A DNA stretch of 64,000 bases. Origin: Minisyncoccota bacterium. Lineage in GTDB: Bacteria; Patescibacteriota; Minisyncoccia; Phycocordibacterales; CSBR16-193. Where the stretch lies: NCBI GenBank assembly GCA_040905715.1, contig JBBDRA010000003.1, positions 263,142 through 327,141 on the forward strand, given 5' to 3'. Of this stretch, positions 1,451 to 44,904 are shown piece after piece (within the stretch, counting starts at the first letter, position 1; each line of letters starts with the position of its first letter). The notes below the pieces were generated by a model. The model worked only from the letters and a program-made list of their open reading frames with translations, did not search any database and was not told the DNA's origin. Both the position numbers and the translations under genes were made by a program.

Positions 1451-3244
1451 ATGTTCGACCCCCAGTTACTTTCCCAGCTTTTTATTTTTGCGGTCCTGGT
1501 GGCCATGATGTCGGAGTTTATAAGAGGAAAGTTACGCTACGATATAGTTTCTCTACTCGCCTTGCTTGCGATCATATTTGCAGGCTTGCTGGCTCCGGAG
1601 GAAGCGTTTGTGAGTTTTGGGCATCCCGCAATTATTATTGTTGCATCGATGTTCATCATTAGTCAGGGGCTTGTGCTCTCCGGCGTGATCGATATTATCG
1701 GTCGTAAGTTCATCTCGATCGGCCATCATCCGATCATTCAACTTTTCTTGCTTATTGTCGTGGTGGCGTTTGTTTCTGCGTTCGTTAATAATATCGGGGC
1801 GCTTGCGTTGTTTTTGCCGATCGCCATTCACGTTGCAAAGGATAATGATATCTCGCCTTCGAAGTTTCTTATACCACTCGCGTTCGCTTCGCACCTTGGA
1901 GGATTTCTTACGTTGATCGGTACGCCAAGGAATATTATTGTTTCAAGTTTTCGAGCTGACGAGTCCGGTTTTGAGCACTTCGGGATGTTTGACTTTGCCC
2001 TGGTCGGATTACCGCTAGCGATCGTTGGTATCATTTTTCTCGCCTTCATTAGCTGGCGCTTGCTCCCAAATCGACGCTGCGGATCGCCGGATAAATGCGA
2101 TCTTTTTGAAGTGAGGAACTATACAACTGAAATAAAAGCAACAGAGGACTCTGAGCTGATCGGTACATATATTAAGGATATACCGGAGCAGACCGGTCTA
2201 GCGTTTGCAATACGAGGTATACAGCGTGGTGAAAGCCACCTCCACCAATTTTCAGGTTTCGAAGTACTCCAAGAAGGGGACGTGCTTATTGTCTCGGCGG
2301 AGCCTGAGGTCCTCACTGAACTGATCGAGTCCGCAAAATTTGAGACACCACAGAGTAAGGCAAAAGAGGCAGGAGTTACGCCGGATGAGGAACAAGGAGA
2401 TGTCGAGGCAGTGGTAACACCTCGATCGGTTCTTGTCGGCAGGTCTTGGGGAAGTATACCGCTTCGTTTGCGATACGGTGTTAATCTCTTGGCGGTGGCT
2501 CGACAAGGAGCAAGGCTTTCAGTTCCGCTCGAAGAGATCACATTCCGTCAAAGTGACATTCTTTTGTTCCAAGGACGTAAGGAGAGTATTAACGACTCCC
2601 TTTCCGCCCTTGGTTGTTATCCGCTTGCTGATAGAGGGCTTTCGTTCGGCAGAAGTCGTCATGTCATCATTTCGTTATCTATTTTTGTTGTCGCTATCGC
2701 GCTCGCAACAATGTCTCTTGTGCCCGTCCATATTGCCTTTCTTGCGGCTGCGCTGGCTATGATACTTACGAATATCATGTCTACCAGACAAGCCTATGAA
2801 AGTATCGAGTGGCCGGTTCTTATTTTACTGGGTTCAATGCTGGCATTCAGCGAAGCCTTTGAATCAAGCGGTAGCGCCGGTGTGATCAGTGACTTTTTGA
2901 TAACTGCGAGTGATACAACTACTCCTCTTGTGCTCCTTGGCATCGTTTTGGTGGCAACGGTAATTGTGTCTGATTTTATTAATTCAACCACAGCAGCTGT
3001 GCTCATGGCGCCGATCGCTATTATTGTCGCGACCGGTATTGGTGCATCGATCGACCCGTTCTTGATGGCTGTTGCGATCGGGTCAGCGGCTGCATTCCTG
3101 ACGCCTGTTGGTCATGAGTCAAACACACTTGTTCTTGGTCCTGGTGGGTATAAGTTTATTGATTATGTAAAAGTTGGTTTGCCGATGGATATTATTATTG
3201 TTGTTGCATCACTTATCCTCCTGCCTATCTTTTGGCCGCTTTAG
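1451..3244 (+). CDS. SLC13/DASS-family permease with two central RCK_C (TrkA-C) domains
   Basis: 597 aa. Multi-TM halves flank a soluble ~200-aa insert with two TrkA-C-like repeats (EVRNYTTEIKATEDSELIG.. and VVTPRSVLVGRSWGSIPLRLRYGVNLLAVAR), the YfbS-like architecture. Confidence 0.65.
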   Translation: MFDPQLLSQLFIFAVLVAMMSEFIRGKLRYDIVSLLALLAIIFAGLLAPEEAFVSFGHPAIIIVASMFIISQGLVLSGVIDIIGRKFISIGHHPIIQLFLLIVVVAFVSAFVNNIGALALFLPIAIHVAKDNDISPSKFLIPLAFASHLGGFLTLIGTPRNIIVSSFRADESGFEHFGMFDFALVGLPLAIVGIIFLAFISWRLLPNRRCGSPDKCDLFEVRNYTTEIKATEDSELIGTYIKDIPEQTGLAFAIRGIQRGESHLHQFSGFEVLQEGDVLIVSAEPEVLTELIESAKFETPQSKAKEAGVTPDEEQGDVEAVVTPRSVLVGRSWGSIPLRLRYGVNLLAVARQGARLSVPLEEITFRQSDILLFQGRKESINDSLSALGCYPLADRGLSFGRSRHVIISLSIFVVAIALATMSLVPVHIAFLAAALAMILTNIMSTRQAYESIEWPVLILLGSMLAFSEAFESSGSAGVISDFLITASDTTTPLVLLGIVLVATVIVSDFINSTTAAVLMAPIAIIVATGIGASIDPFLMAVAIGSAAAFLTPVGHESNTLVLGPGGYKFIDYVKVGLPMDIIIVVASLILLPIFWPL

Positions 3245-3250
3245 AATAGT

Positions 3251-3667
3251 CTATTTCTGCGAAGTATCTTGAGGAGTACGGCACTTATTGCACTTACAGC
3301 CATGTGGTTTGATGTATTCATCAACATACGACTTGCCGTAGTCGTAGGTCAGCTCTTCGCCGGGCTGTATTTTACGCTTAGCGTAGACCTTGATCGTGTG
3401 TTTGATAACGTCGGTCTCGCAGTTCGGCCGACAGGAGTGATTAATGTAACGAGCAATGTTTTCTCGGCCGCTTCCGTCCATGGTCCACTTCGTATTGATC
3501 TCAAAGAGATACTTGTTTGCGCGTCTGTCAGCTTCGTCGTTCGTTATGATCTCGCCGGTGTATTCGATCACAAACTGTCCTTTCTCTATTACTTGATCAG
3601 CAAAAAGACCGAGTCCAGCCTGGGAGCGCTTAACAGAAACGCGTGCTGGTTCTTGTTTTCGATACAT
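3251..3667 (-). CDS. SET-domain protein-lysine N-methyltransferase (minimal SET plus post-SET Cys cluster)
   Basis: 138 aa. N-SET GLGLFA..GQFVIEYTGEII; canonical NHSCRPNC (NHSCxPN) and ELTYDY (ELxxDY) motifs; C-terminal CKCNKC post-SET-like cysteines. Confidence 0.85.
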   Translation of the reverse strand: MYRKQEPARVSVKRSQAGLGLFADQVIEKGQFVIEYTGEIITNDEADRRANKYLFEINTKWTMDGSGRENIARYINHSCRPNCETDVIKHTIKVYAKRKIQPGEELTYDYGKSYVDEYIKPHGCKCNKCRTPQDTSQK

Positions 3668-3742
3668 AGTGGAAATGCATGATACGCATTATTGCTATTC
3701 GATGCAATGTAAAAACCTTATGCTAAATGCTAAAATAGAAAA

Positions 3743-4342
3743 ATGATATCTTCTCGTGCATTTAAATATACGATCATTGGACTGCTTGTTGTTGTGAGTG
3801 TTGCTAGTTGGTATTTCACGATCTCCATTTATCAGAATAATAAGGCGGATATTATTACTGCAGTTGCTGATATTGCTCATGAACTAGCTCTACCGTTCCA
3901 TATGGCCCGAATGGCTGCGCGAGAGCCTGTTACTGAATTGCCGGTGCCGGTCTACGGGGTGGTGCTTGATCAGATCGACGACACGTGGGGTGCGGCACGT
4001 AGCGAGGGTCGGACGCACGACGGGACTGACATTTTTGCCACGCGAGGAACGCCGGTTTTCTCCGCAACTGAGGGATATGTTACTCGAACGAATATTGGTA
4101 CACGTGGTGGTATTAACGTAATGGTGGCCGGTCCGGGCGGGTTGAATTATTACTACGCACATCTAGAGCGGATCGCTGACGGTATTAGACGTGGACAGGC
4201 GGTGACCACTGATACGGTGCTTGGTTTTGTTGGTAACTCCGGCAATGCAACGAATACACCGCCGCATCTTCATTTTGCTCTGTATCCCGAACGATGGGAC
4301 GCGGTTAATCCGTATCCGTTACTCGTTGATCGCTGGGATTAG
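3743..4342 (+). CDS. M23 family (LytM-like) metallo-endopeptidase, membrane anchored
   Basis: N-terminal TM helix. M23 zinc motifs HDGTD (HxxxD) and HLHF (HxH), with GFVGNSGNAT between them. Confidence 0.8.
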   Translation: MISSRAFKYTIIGLLVVVSVASWYFTISIYQNNKADIITAVADIAHELALPFHMARMAAREPVTELPVPVYGVVLDQIDDTWGAARSEGRTHDGTDIFATRGTPVFSATEGYVTRTNIGTRGGINVMVAGPGGLNYYYAHLERIADGIRRGQAVTTDTVLGFVGNSGNATNTPPHLHFALYPERWDAVNPYPLLVDRWD

Positions 4343-6449: not shown

Positions 6450-6720
6450 TTTGCGTAGATAGAGTGCTAATTCAAGGTGTCGGGGTTGACTTTTACATCT
6501 ATACAAGCTATTATGTTTGCACATCAAATCTCGCGAGTATTTCTCGAGTTCCTCGTTTAGAAACAAGAGTGACTCAGCAGGAAGAAGGAGTCGAACGTAC
6601 AGTGTCTATCACCAGTTCATTCGTCTCAACGCAGCACGCATAAAGCAGTGTTCAACTCCCGGGACGATGAACGGTATGTAAAAGCACCGGCCGTAGTTTA
6701 TTACGGTGCATATTTATTTT

Positions 6721-8004
6721 ATGGAAAGACAGAATCAAAGTCGGTCATATGGCCGAAGTGGCTCATATGGACGAGGAGCTGCAAGTACAGGAAACAGACG
6801 TTCACGACCGTATAACGGTGGAGGAAATAATCGATCACGCTCACGTAACGGTGGTGGTGGTTTTCGAAGTAAAGGACGCGGAGGCGGTCGAAGAGCTGGA
6901 AAGCAGCAGATCGATATCGCACGCTTTATTAACCGAGCAGAACCGGCGGCAGAAGTTAAGGCATACGAGCCACAACACAAATTTGCTGACTTTGCGCTCG
7001 ATGCTCGTCTAAAGAGCAACATTGCTACGAAGGGCTATGTTGACCCAACACCGATTCAGGATCAGATCATCAAACATGTTCTTGAGGGTAAGGATGTGGT
7101 AGGGATCGCTAACACCGGAACCGGTAAGACGGCAGCATTTCTGCTTCCTCTCATTGATAAGGTATTAAATAATCCGAAAGAGCGGGTAATGGTTATTACG
7201 CCGACTCGTGAGCTTGCCCAGCAGATCGAGCAAGAACTTATTTCGTTTACGAAAGGACTACGTATTTTTGCCACATCATGTGTCGGAGGTGCGCCGATCG
7301 GACGACAGATCTCACGCTTGAAACGACACAATCACTTTGTGATCGGAACTCCCGGTCGACTGAAGGACCTGGTAGAGCGACGAGTGCTTTCTCTGAACGG
7401 CTTTAATACGCTTGTTCTGGACGAGGCTGATCGGATGCTTGATATGGGATTTATCGATGACATGAAACAGATCATGGCCGGTATGCCTAAAGAGCGTCAT
7501 ACGCTGTTCTTCTCGGCAACAATGTCGAAGGAGATCACGGCGCTCATCAGCACATTCTTGAAGGAACCGGTAACTGTTTCAGTAAAAACCGGTGACACCT
7601 CAAAGCAGGTGGATCAGGATGTTGTGCGAACGCGAGGTGCGGACAAACTTGATGTTCTTCACGATCTCTTGAATCAATCAGATTTCGAACGTGTACTTGT
7701 TTTTGGTGAGACCAAGCGTGGTGTTGAGAAACTCTCTGCCTTGCTTACCAAACGCGGTATTCGTGCGGAAGCTATTCACGGCAATAAAAGTCAATCTCAA
7801 CGTGAGCGAGCATTGAAGAAATTTAAAGACGGACACGCCAAAGTATTGGTGGCAACTGATGTTGCTGCTCGCGGACTCGATATTAATAACGTCTCGCACG
7901 TTATCAACTACGATACTCCGCAAACCTACGATGACTACGTTCACCGTATCGGCCGAACAGGTCGCGCCGGAAAAACCGGAAAGGCACTGACGTTCATCGG
8001 ATAA
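6721..8004 (+). CDS. DEAD-box ATP-dependent RNA helicase with N-terminal Arg/Gly-rich (RGG-like) tail
   Basis: Motifs ANTGTGKT, PTRELA, VLDEADRML (DEAD), SAT, HRIGRTGRAG. N-terminus is rich in RSR/GGG repeats. ATG 6721 preferred over the GTG at 6706. Confidence 0.9.
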   Translation: MERQNQSRSYGRSGSYGRGAASTGNRRSRPYNGGGNNRSRSRNGGGGFRSKGRGGGRRAGKQQIDIARFINRAEPAAEVKAYEPQHKFADFALDARLKSNIATKGYVDPTPIQDQIIKHVLEGKDVVGIANTGTGKTAAFLLPLIDKVLNNPKERVMVITPTRELAQQIEQELISFTKGLRIFATSCVGGAPIGRQISRLKRHNHFVIGTPGRLKDLVERRVLSLNGFNTLVLDEADRMLDMGFIDDMKQIMAGMPKERHTLFFSATMSKEITALISTFLKEPVTVSVKTGDTSKQVDQDVVRTRGADKLDVLHDLLNQSDFERVLVFGETKRGVEKLSALLTKRGIRAEAIHGNKSQSQRERALKKFKDGHAKVLVATDVAARGLDINNVSHVINYDTPQTYDDYVHRIGRTGRAGKTGKALTFIG

Positions 8005-43631: not shown

Positions 43632-43868
43632 ATGCCAGCAAAAAAGAAATCAACTTCAAAGCGCAAGAGCGCTGCTCGAAAGTCGAGCGCGCGTAAGACG
43701 TCGGCAAAACGAAAGCCGGCAAAGAAGAAGTCAACGGCACGAAAAACAACAGCGAAGCGAAAGCCTGCAAAGAAGAAAGCAGCTGCAAAACGAAAACCAG
43801 CTAAGAAAAAGTCGACCGCAAAAAGAAAAACAGCTCGCAAGAAGACAAGTACACGAAGAAAGCGATAG
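43632..43868 (+). CDS. lysine/alanine-rich histone H1-like nucleoid protein (Hc2/AlgP-type tail) built from AKRKPAKKK repeats
   Basis: 78 aa, about 45 percent Lys/Arg. Three tandem AKRKPAKKK(S/A)(T/A) units. An extended -10 (TGtTATAAT) lies upstream and a hairpin terminator downstream. Confidence 0.7.
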   Translation: MPAKKKSTSKRKSAARKSSARKTSAKRKPAKKKSTARKTTAKRKPAKKKAAAKRKPAKKKSTAKRKTARKKTSTRRKR

Positions 43869-43887
43869 GTGACATTTTCTCACGCTT

Positions 43888-43923
43888 AGAAAAATCACTC
43901 ACAGTACTGTGGGTGATTTTTCT
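43888..43923. terminator. bidirectional terminator between H1-like gene and ATP-grasp gene
   Basis: AAAAA-atcactcacag-ta-ctgtgggtgat-TTTTT (one G-U pair). Confidence 0.65.
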
Positions 43924-43998
43924 GTATTGACTCTCACACTACCTTCAGCTTAGATGTGTTGTGTGGTTGGGGTTGTAGGTCGTAGCAGGTGGTGTAAA

Positions 43999-44904
43999 TT
44001 AGTTTTCAGAACCTGAGACATGTGACAGCGAAGCATTCGCAGCTGTTTTTGATACGGCGTACTCTAATAGTAACTTTGCTATATTTTTGTTGGTATATGT
44101 TTCAAACATGTGAAATTGGGGAGAAGTGTTCACTTCAAGAACATACCATGTTCCGTTGTAATGCGTAAGGTCTATTCCTGCTATTTCTATGTTTTGGTAC
44201 TGTGCTGCGCGCTCACAGATGCTGATCGCTTCATCAGGAAGAGGAAGATGGTCTTTGTGATTACCCGGTCGATTCATTCTGAATTCTCCGTCATCTCTCG
44301 TGCGCCGGTATGAGTCTATGTACTGACCGTTAATAACGATGGCACGAATATCGTGGTCTACCGGGAGATATTCTTGGAGAATAACTCGTGGCCCGAGTTT
44401 GTCATATGCTTGACAGAGTGACGCAGCATTTTCTACTAAAATAACGTTGCGCCCCATGCTTCCGATCGTGGATTTCATAACCACAGGAAAGACAAGGGTA
44501 GGCGTGACGCTCTCGAGTGCTTGTGCGTTCTGGATCATAAGATAATTCGGCATCGGTATCGTGTGGTCAGCCGCACGTAAGAATAGCTTGTCCATGCTAA
44601 TCGATCCGTTCGCTGTGTTTTCCTCTATGATAGTCGCGCCGTGTCGCTGTAGATATTTTGCGATAACCATAACCTCGTTGTCAGCATCGCCGATCCCTCT
44701 AAAAATATAACAGTCGCTGTTAGTAACGTTTCGTCCGTTAGCATCAAAGAGACCGAACACATTGTTCTGTTCGCTCAGTATCAAAGACGAAACGGAAACA
44801 GCTTCAAATGTCACGCCAAGTTTCTCTGCCTCTTCTGCTAGTCGCTGTACGTCGTGTCCGGTAGGGTTGCCGATCAAGGTAATGTTCATAGTGTCATTAT
44901 ACAA
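43999..44904 (-). CDS. ATP-grasp ligase, RimK/GshB-like
   Basis: VILQEYLPVDHDIRAIVINGQ.., FRMNRPGNHKDHLP, WYVLEVNTSPQF are ATP-grasp motifs. Confidence 0.7.
   Translation of the reverse strand: MYNDTMNITLIGNPTGHDVQRLAEEAEKLGVTFEAVSVSSLILSEQNNVFGLFDANGRNVTNSDCYIFRGIGDADNEVMVIAKYLQRHGATIIEENTANGSISMDKLFLRAADHTIPMPNYLMIQNAQALESVTPTLVFPVVMKSTIGSMGRNVILVENAASLCQAYDKLGPRVILQEYLPVDHDIRAIVINGQYIDSYRRTRDDGEFRMNRPGNHKDHLPLPDEAISICERAAQYQNIEIAGIDLTHYNGTWYVLEVNTSPQFHMFETYTNKNIAKLLLEYAVSKTAANASLSHVSGSEN

Follow-up and report, generated by a model that had tools for sequence, protein, structure and literature searches.

The 64,000-nucleotide stretch of DNA analysed here (positions 263,142 to 327,141 of contig JBBDRA010000003.1 from a Minisyncoccota bacterium, hereafter called the window) carries a gene for a small protein that consists of a single SET domain, and in our assessment there is about an even chance that this protein is an active, cytoplasmic lysine methyltransferase working on a basic, nucleic-acid-associated protein of the same cell. 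The gene, named SET below, occupies positions 3251 to 3667 of the minus strand as an ATG-started open reading frame (ORF) of 138 amino acids, stop codon included, and was delimited by a Pfam SET match and an identical NCBI entry. It is real and intact, and its annotation in public databases is already correct; the gene itself is nothing new. NCBI lists the identical protein under four accession numbers, one of which is MEX0672744.1 from Candidatus Paceibacterota, with the name SET-domain protein-lysine N-methyltransferase. Since this exact protein and hundreds of relatives with 55-85% identity are found in public data, the ORF is far beyond chance. An ORF on the opposite strand (3269 to 3682, plus) is the antisense shadow of the SET gene, and similar shadows lie opposite SET in 65 related loci. 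The modest interest of the protein lies in its being a very compact SET enzyme, as predicted, that is strongly conserved across the genome-reduced Patescibacteria, which retain few dispensable genes. Its value also lies in a distinctive, shortened motif in the putative zinc cluster, and in the repeated fusion of its relatives to basic tails resembling histone H1. The family is therefore a tractable test case for asking whether the nucleoid proteins of bacteria are methylated by the bacteria themselves.

The SET protein has a mass of 16 kDa and a predicted isoelectric point (pI) of 8.9. The first-pass annotation of this DNA had described a 138-residue protein with the motifs GLGLFA, NHSCRPNC, ELTYDY and CxCxxC, a single domain and no signal peptide, and this description was confirmed. 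The motifs are located at residues 18-23, 76-83, 105-110 and 124-129 (CKCNKC), respectively, of an ORF that lies on the minus strand. The N-terminus (MYRKQEPARVSVKRSQ) is hydrophilic and contains no hydrophobic stretch, and inspection therefore reveals no signal peptide. The Pfam search that had been proposed returned the SET family (PF00856) at residues 18-111 with an E-value of 2.8e-28 and a score of 98.8 bits, compared to a gathering score of 22.4, and model positions 1-105 were fully covered. The SET-related PR domain appeared as a sub-threshold match, and no further domains were detected in the Pfam scan. The SET domain proper was placed at residues 18-111 (3335 to 3616, minus strand) based on the Pfam envelope, the invariant alignment columns, the alignment with MLL1 and EZH2, and a structural model. 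It contains the GLGLF sequence with the S-adenosylmethionine (SAM)-binding GxG motif, Y36, Y53 and F55, the NHSC pseudoknot motif (76-79), and ELTYDY (105-110).

Comparison with solved structures gave the same picture. The SET domains of KMT2A/MLL1, KMT2D, KMT2C and EZH2 match at E-values of approximately 1e-20, and the GxG, NHSC and ELTYDY motifs pair residue for residue with those of MLL1 and EZH2. Relative to MLL1, the SET-I insert is 8 residues shorter, and another deletion of 4-5 residues is located ahead of the last strands. The structure prediction and overlay suggested in the first-pass annotation also agreed with a SET fold. The AlphaFold2 model, calculated with a 40-sequence family alignment, has a mean predicted local distance difference test (pLDDT) score of 84.2 and a predicted template modelling (pTM) score of 0.75, with only residues 1-3 and 134-138 disordered. 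A Foldseek search with this model retrieved the SET domains of MLL1, EZH2, G9a and NSD with template modelling (TM) scores of 0.72-0.78 and 34-41% identity, and the SET beta-fold, composed of SET-N, a short SET-I, and SET-C with its pseudoknot, is present in the model. In the structural comparison list, the tabulated figures were 15.7 for yeast Set1, 15.3 for MLL1, 14.5 for SET8, 14.4 for EZH2, 11.3 for Legionella LegAS4, and 4.3 for the nuclear magnetic resonance (NMR) model of the viral protein vSET. Both the motifs and the model support the view that this is a minimal SET protein of one domain, in which the set of catalytic motifs is intact.

Nine positions, G18, G20, Y36, Y53, F55, N76, H77, Y108 and Y110, are those that we take to contact the cofactor or to line the lysine channel, based on the MLL1 alignment and on structural work on MLL1. 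All nine are invariant in the 40-sequence alignment and are 87-100% conserved in the 196 members of the sub-family, a pattern as would be expected for an active enzyme, and one that argues for purifying selection on catalysis. By homology, the SAM pocket would be formed by G18-x-G20, Y53, N76-H77 and Y110, and the target lysine would enter a narrow aromatic channel made up of Y36, F55, Y108 and Y110. A Cys4 zinc cluster, composed of C79 together with C124, C126 and C129, would fold the C-terminal post-SET segment over this channel. The Phe/Tyr-switch position is a tyrosine, Y108, the counterpart of MLL1 Y3942, which suggests that the product would be mono- or di-methylated lysine rather than tri-methylated lysine. 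The SET protein would then be a stand-alone, SAM-dependent protein lysine N-methyltransferase, catalytically competent and located in the cytoplasm of an ultra-small Paceibacterota cell (Patescibacteria, also known as the candidate phyla radiation, CPR). Its substrate would be a strongly basic protein of the cell itself that associates with nucleic acids. A nucleoid protein is the most probable choice, and a lysine-rich ORF elsewhere in the window, described below, is one candidate. We infer the enzymatic activity, the zinc binding, the product state and where the protein resides in the cell; the identity of the substrate is the weakest of these inferences.

The post-SET-like cluster C124-x-C126-x-x-C129 (3281 to 3298, minus strand) was recognized by the position of the motif and its conservation in the sub-family. 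The canonical post-SET spacing is CxCx4C, and the SET protein has the shorter CxCx2C. This shorter spacing occurs in 215 of the 270 relatives that were collected and, judged from these sequences, is a hallmark of the sub-family. C79, which belongs to the NHSC motif, and the three cysteines of the cluster are 99-100% conserved in the 196 sub-family members; C83 (59%) and H122 (19%) are not conserved. Four conserved cysteines are thus on hand for one zinc ion, and C79 with C124, C126 and C129 probably constitutes a Cys4 zinc site. In the species-representative genomes, loci of the Patescibacteria type show CxCx2C, a large group of Acidobacteriota shows CxCx3C (CRCRPGC), and others show CxCx4C. 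The SET proteins of this Acidobacteriota clade (loci L039 to L080) are approximately 138 amino acids long, and their consensus CRCRPGC is followed by a conserved 4-residue tail that ends in L or I.

It has been known for over 20 years that bacteria contain SET-domain proteins, and the SET protein is an ordinary member of a large, known bacterial family. The first-pass annotation had considered prokaryotic SET proteins to be rare, and in absolute numbers this was not upheld, as a scan that took one genome from each prokaryotic species gave at least 572 confirmed relatives. A word-indexed search found 961 relatives with an E-value of at most 1e-5, the top 120 of which share 55-100% identity, and an exhaustive representative library contained 14,048 clusters at E-values up to 1e-3, 2,931 up to 1e-10, and 60 up to 1e-30, counts that take in eukaryotic SET proteins. 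Among the matches listed, the closest 38 are almost all from Patescibacteria (labelled Paceibacteria, Saccharibacteria, Kaiserbacteria, Moranbacteria, Peribacteria, Woesebacteria and others), with 47-65% identity, followed by proteins from Acidobacteriota, Verrucomicrobiota, Myxococcota and others with 38-48% identity. Going by these sequence matches, the family is common in Patescibacteria.

A recent transfer of the gene from a eukaryote to a bacterium is not favoured, the nearest sequences being hundreds of bacterial proteins with 45-85% identity, compared to approximately 35-43% for eukaryotic SET cores, and the view summarized in PMC3980110 is in agreement with this. Likewise, a foreign island within the genome was rejected, as the GC content is flat at approximately 47% across the window. 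No relatives were detected in IMG/VR viral contigs when these were searched with family patterns. One protein from a metagenome-assembled genome labelled Bradyrhizobiaceae (P0044) is 64% identical to the Paceibacterota SET protein, which hints at either inter-phylum transfer or a binning error. Among the relatives, P0121, P0123 and P0197 each carry two complete catalytic cores in a tandem SET-SET arrangement on one chain, and P0122, with 4,152 amino acids, contains five matching stretches.

Part of the family is fused to basic sequences. When scored as a 20-residue window with at least 40% lysine plus arginine, a basic C-terminal extension of at least 20 amino acids is present in 47 of the 270 relatives (~17%), and an equivalent N-terminal extension in 5. 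Long lysine- and alanine-rich, H1-like tails, some of 60-130 amino acids, are found in P0127 (~100 amino acids), P0136 (KAAKAGKAKAKSANTKSAKTKSAKSKSAKSKS), P0152, P0254, and at locus L058, which is from the cultured Citreicoccus inhibens. The N-terminal sequence of P0254, KKATKSATKATKRRTTATKKATKSTKAAPKK, closely resembles the lysine-rich ORF in the window. Overall, the last 60 amino acids are basic in 29% of the SET relatives versus 7% of the long non-overlapping ORFs from the same loci. Such fused basic tails would fit an enzyme that acts on nucleic-acid-bound basic partners, or one that methylates its own tail.

The first-pass annotation had further pointed to a lysine-rich H1-like protein, encoded at 43632 to 43868, as an obvious candidate substrate. 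This ORF does exist; it is located on the plus strand, is intact, and specifies 78 amino acids, of which 28 are lysine, 12 arginine and 15 alanine. As many as 99% of the residues are K, A, R, P, S or T, and the predicted pI is approximately 12. A filter for lysine-rich ORFs, when checked on the window, picked out this ORF alone. Its neighbours are a RimK-like ATP-grasp gene in convergent and an SNF-family transporter gene in divergent orientation, and the greater part of the 650 bp that separate them is taken up by the ORF. In a related strain the ORF is also intact, with a 15-nt in-frame insertion that adds a repeat-like unit, GAKRS, and the other difference, a single GCG to GCA substitution, is synonymous in this frame. 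The ORF is probably a low-complexity gene that was missed in annotation. A perfect 17-bp hairpin with A-run and U-run flanks (43887 to 43924; folding energy -24.4 kcal/mol, z-score -6.1 relative to shuffled sequences) starts 19 nt past its stop codon and is also downstream of the convergent RimK-like gene. The RNA fold marks it as a likely bidirectional terminator, which a simple terminator scan had overlooked. The hairpin is consistent with transcription of the lysine-rich ORF and is not specific for it, since it could terminate the RimK-like gene. The latter gene (43999 to 44904, minus strand) adjoins the lysine-rich ORF, and the RimK family adds glutamates to ribosomal protein S6. As a substrate the ORF is a reasonable proposal, given the H1-like tails fused to other family members and the precedent of cpnSET and Hc1 in Chlamydia discussed below, which by analogy lend the hypothesis some indirect support.

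SET is a lone minus-strand gene among housekeeping genes. A CitMHS/TrkA-C transporter gene (1451 to 3244) is convergent with it, the two stop codons being 6 bp apart, and an M23 peptidase gene (3743 to 4342, plus strand) is divergent from it. The 75-bp spacer between the SET and M23 genes (3668 to 3742) has no Shine-Dalgarno sequence and presumably holds the promoters of both genes. A scan for consensus promoters near SET and near the lysine-rich ORF found nothing. Beyond the M23 gene are genes for a cyclophilin, a VKOR-family protein and a DEAD-box helicase. This helicase (6706 to 8004, plus strand) starts with approximately 60 residues of RGG/RS-type low complexity (GRSGSYGRG...NRSRSRNGGGGFRSKGRGGGRR), an unusual feature in a bacterial helicase. 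A DEAD-box helicase gene also lies ~700 bp from SET at locus L087, possibly by coincidence. Inspection of the regions upstream of 40 genes indicated that a Shine-Dalgarno sequence is missing from most genes in the window. Many start codons are located 5-15 nt past TATAAT-like boxes, for example upstream of 11209, 15158, 45458 and 50003, which suggests leaderless mRNAs, or mRNAs with a very short leader, in this Paceibacterota genome. The missing Shine-Dalgarno sequence was rejected as an argument against either SET or the lysine-rich ORF, and it is uninformative because the genome largely lacks such motifs.

The annotated neighbourhoods of six SET homologues all differ. The one exception is found in two related Patescibacteria genomes (L084, 3829 to 6441, and L085, 3818 to 6435), where a gene for a 720-amino-acid SMC-family protein is followed on the same strand, after 10-20 bp, by SET, in a conserved block that comprises L32, NusB-NUDIX, RNase III, two unknown genes, SMC and SET. 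This adjacency was rejected as a general clue since it is clade-specific and absent from all other loci and from the window. At another locus (L082, 832 to 9755, from the genome that encodes P0005) SET is found among genes for a Dam-type DNA methyltransferase, a helix-turn-helix protein, a PD-(D/E)XK nuclease and a tyrosine integrase, and may ride on an integrated mobile element there.

A number of these and other observations weigh against an endogenous basic nucleic-acid-associated protein as the substrate, and against the lysine-rich ORF in particular. The latter is 40 kb away from SET, and no lysine-rich ORF was found within 8 kb on either side of SET in any of the 81 loci analysed. Its exact sequence is absent from a collection of 15 billion proteins, and it is uncalled on the Logan contig that contains it. 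Among 8,000 word candidates, HMMER gave no significant homologues of the protein after composition correction. Its matches to H1-like families are below threshold (PF07382 HC2, 20 bits compared to 40; NF038052, 16.8 compared to 135; NF038053, 17.5 compared to 80), therefore "H1-like" is a statement on composition. When all ORFs within 5 kb on either side of SET in the 81 loci were clustered, only SET and its antisense shadows recurred, and SET has no operon partner. With neither a recurrent neighbour nor a nearby lysine-rich ORF, the genomic context therefore gives no substrate. The adjacency to SMC is confined to two related loci. As for the fused tails, most of the relatives that bear them look proteobacterial and not Patescibacterial, the 7% baseline is crude and is inflated by spurious arginine-rich ORFs from high-GC loci, and basic tails would suit an association with RNA or ribosomes equally well. 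What stands of the first-pass proposal is thus an intact, lysine-rich ORF and a plausible relationship; "obvious" it is not, and we regard the ORF as a doubtful candidate for the substrate of the SET protein.

The last point on the tails leads to an alternative that we consider possible, with a fairly low probability, namely that the enzyme is active and cytoplasmic, and that it methylates a ribosomal protein, a translation factor, or another conserved housekeeping protein. Among the matches listed, identities of 47-65% extend across Paceibacteria, Saccharibacteria, Moranbacteria, Peribacteria and Woesebacteria, and for such distant lineages a universally conserved substrate suits better than a fast-evolving, low-complexity one. 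The basic tails of the relatives could equally target RNA or ribosomes, and SET enzymes that methylate ribosomal proteins are known from yeast, the Rkm family. In some loci the genes near SET are also those of translation (RRF and L27; IF3, L35 and L20; S15), however, none of these neighbours recurs, and in very small genomes many genes lie close to ribosomal ones by chance. Moreover, the sole documented endogenous substrates of prokaryotic SET proteins are the chromatin or nucleoid proteins Hc1 and MC1-alpha (PMC3980110). The SMC adjacency, like the resemblance of the longest fused tails to H1, also points to DNA rather than to the translation machinery.

Patescibacteria are episymbionts of prokaryotes, and the SET protein could be delivered into the host cell to methylate archaeal histones or bacterial nucleoid proteins there, comparable to NUE, LegAS4/RomA, BtSET and BaSET. 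We judge this improbable. The protein has no signal peptide, no accessory domain of the effector type and no feature of the nuclear-localisation type, and no secretion genes adjoin SET. The match to LegAS4 reaches 39 bits, compared to a cut-off of 550, and is limited to the SET core, and close relatives are widespread in phyla labelled as free-living, such as Acidobacteriota, Verrucomicrobia and Myxococcota. Host histones, which the first-pass annotation had named among the usual substrates of such proteins, are for the same lack of a secretion signal or effector domain not evident as targets. A use of the SET fold for something other than lysine methylation, either the methylation of histidine or small molecules as in SETD3 and BurB, or non-catalytic binding as in many PR domains, is very improbable in our view. 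The best explanation for the SET protein is, in our opinion, an active cytoplasmic lysine methyltransferase with an endogenous basic nucleic-acid-associated substrate.

A wider proposal, which we put forward as a rather unlikely one, is that carriers of the CxCx2C type, including Patescibacteria, run an endogenous chromatin-like system in which a minimal SET enzyme methylates H1-like or otherwise basic nucleoid proteins. In this genome the basic protein would have a gene of its own, and in some relatives it would form part of the enzyme chain. If true, such a system would adjust the packing of the nucleoid or the expression of genes in cells that have hardly any conventional regulators, and bacteria would possess an equivalent of histone methylation that does not depend on a eukaryotic host.

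Among known systems, the catalytic core of the SET protein is most like that of the Set1/MLL (KMT2, trithorax) methyltransferases, which modify lysine 4 of histone H3 (H3K4). The SET-I insert of the SET protein is approximately 8 residues shorter, and CxCx2C takes the place of CxCx4C. Flanking domains are missing, there is no sign of partners of the WDR5/RbBP5/Ash2L type, and the host is a bacterium with no nucleosomal histone in evidence. Members of KMT2 are multi-domain proteins that function in a WRAD-type complex with histone H3 as substrate, whereas the SET protein is a bacterial single-domain protein of 138 amino acids, and it was not assigned to this family. In size it resembles vSET of chlorovirus PBCV-1 (119 amino acids; PDB 1n3j), a methyltransferase for lysine 27 of histone H3 (H3K27), which is also a minimal SET protein with little beyond the catalytic core, and the two share 30% identity over the aligned part. 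The secreted nucleomodulins LegAS4/RomA, NUE, BtSET and BaSET are larger, multi-domain proteins of pathogens of eukaryotes and have only the catalytic core in common with the SET protein. The latter has no hydrophobic N-terminus, no extra domain and no family-level match, since the AnkI/LegAS4 family model scores 39.4 bits against a cut-off of 550, over the SET core only, and it was not counted among the nucleomodulins either.

Closer to the proposed function are two prokaryotic enzymes. In the library searched, no paper was found linking SET domains with Patescibacteria, and a review from 2022 treats the question of how modification affects the nucleoid proteins of bacteria as still open (PMC10117894). 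In Methanosarcina, Go1-SET methylates the chromatin protein MC1-alpha (PMC3980110, PMC10117894). Like the SET protein, Go1-SET is a small stand-alone prokaryotic SET enzyme, and since its substrate is an endogenous small basic DNA-binding protein, it would be a functional analogue of what we propose here. Unlike the SET protein, it is archaeal, and the MC1 family was not detected in the window. In Chlamydia pneumoniae, according to summaries of the work of Murata et al. 2007, cpnSET binds two H1-like proteins, Hc1 and Hc2, of which it methylates Hc1 (PMC3980110, PMC10117894). The homologue NUE, also from Chlamydia, is an effector secreted by a type III system, whereas no evidence of secretion was seen for the SET protein. 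The lysine-rich ORF has no demonstrable homology to Hc1 or Hc2, and the likeness to cpnSET is one of gene content and of proposed relationship. In both cases, a bacterial SET gene and a lysine-rich, H1-like ORF are present in the same genome, here 40 kb apart, and the relation that we propose between the SET protein and a basic protein would be analogous to that between cpnSET and Hc1.
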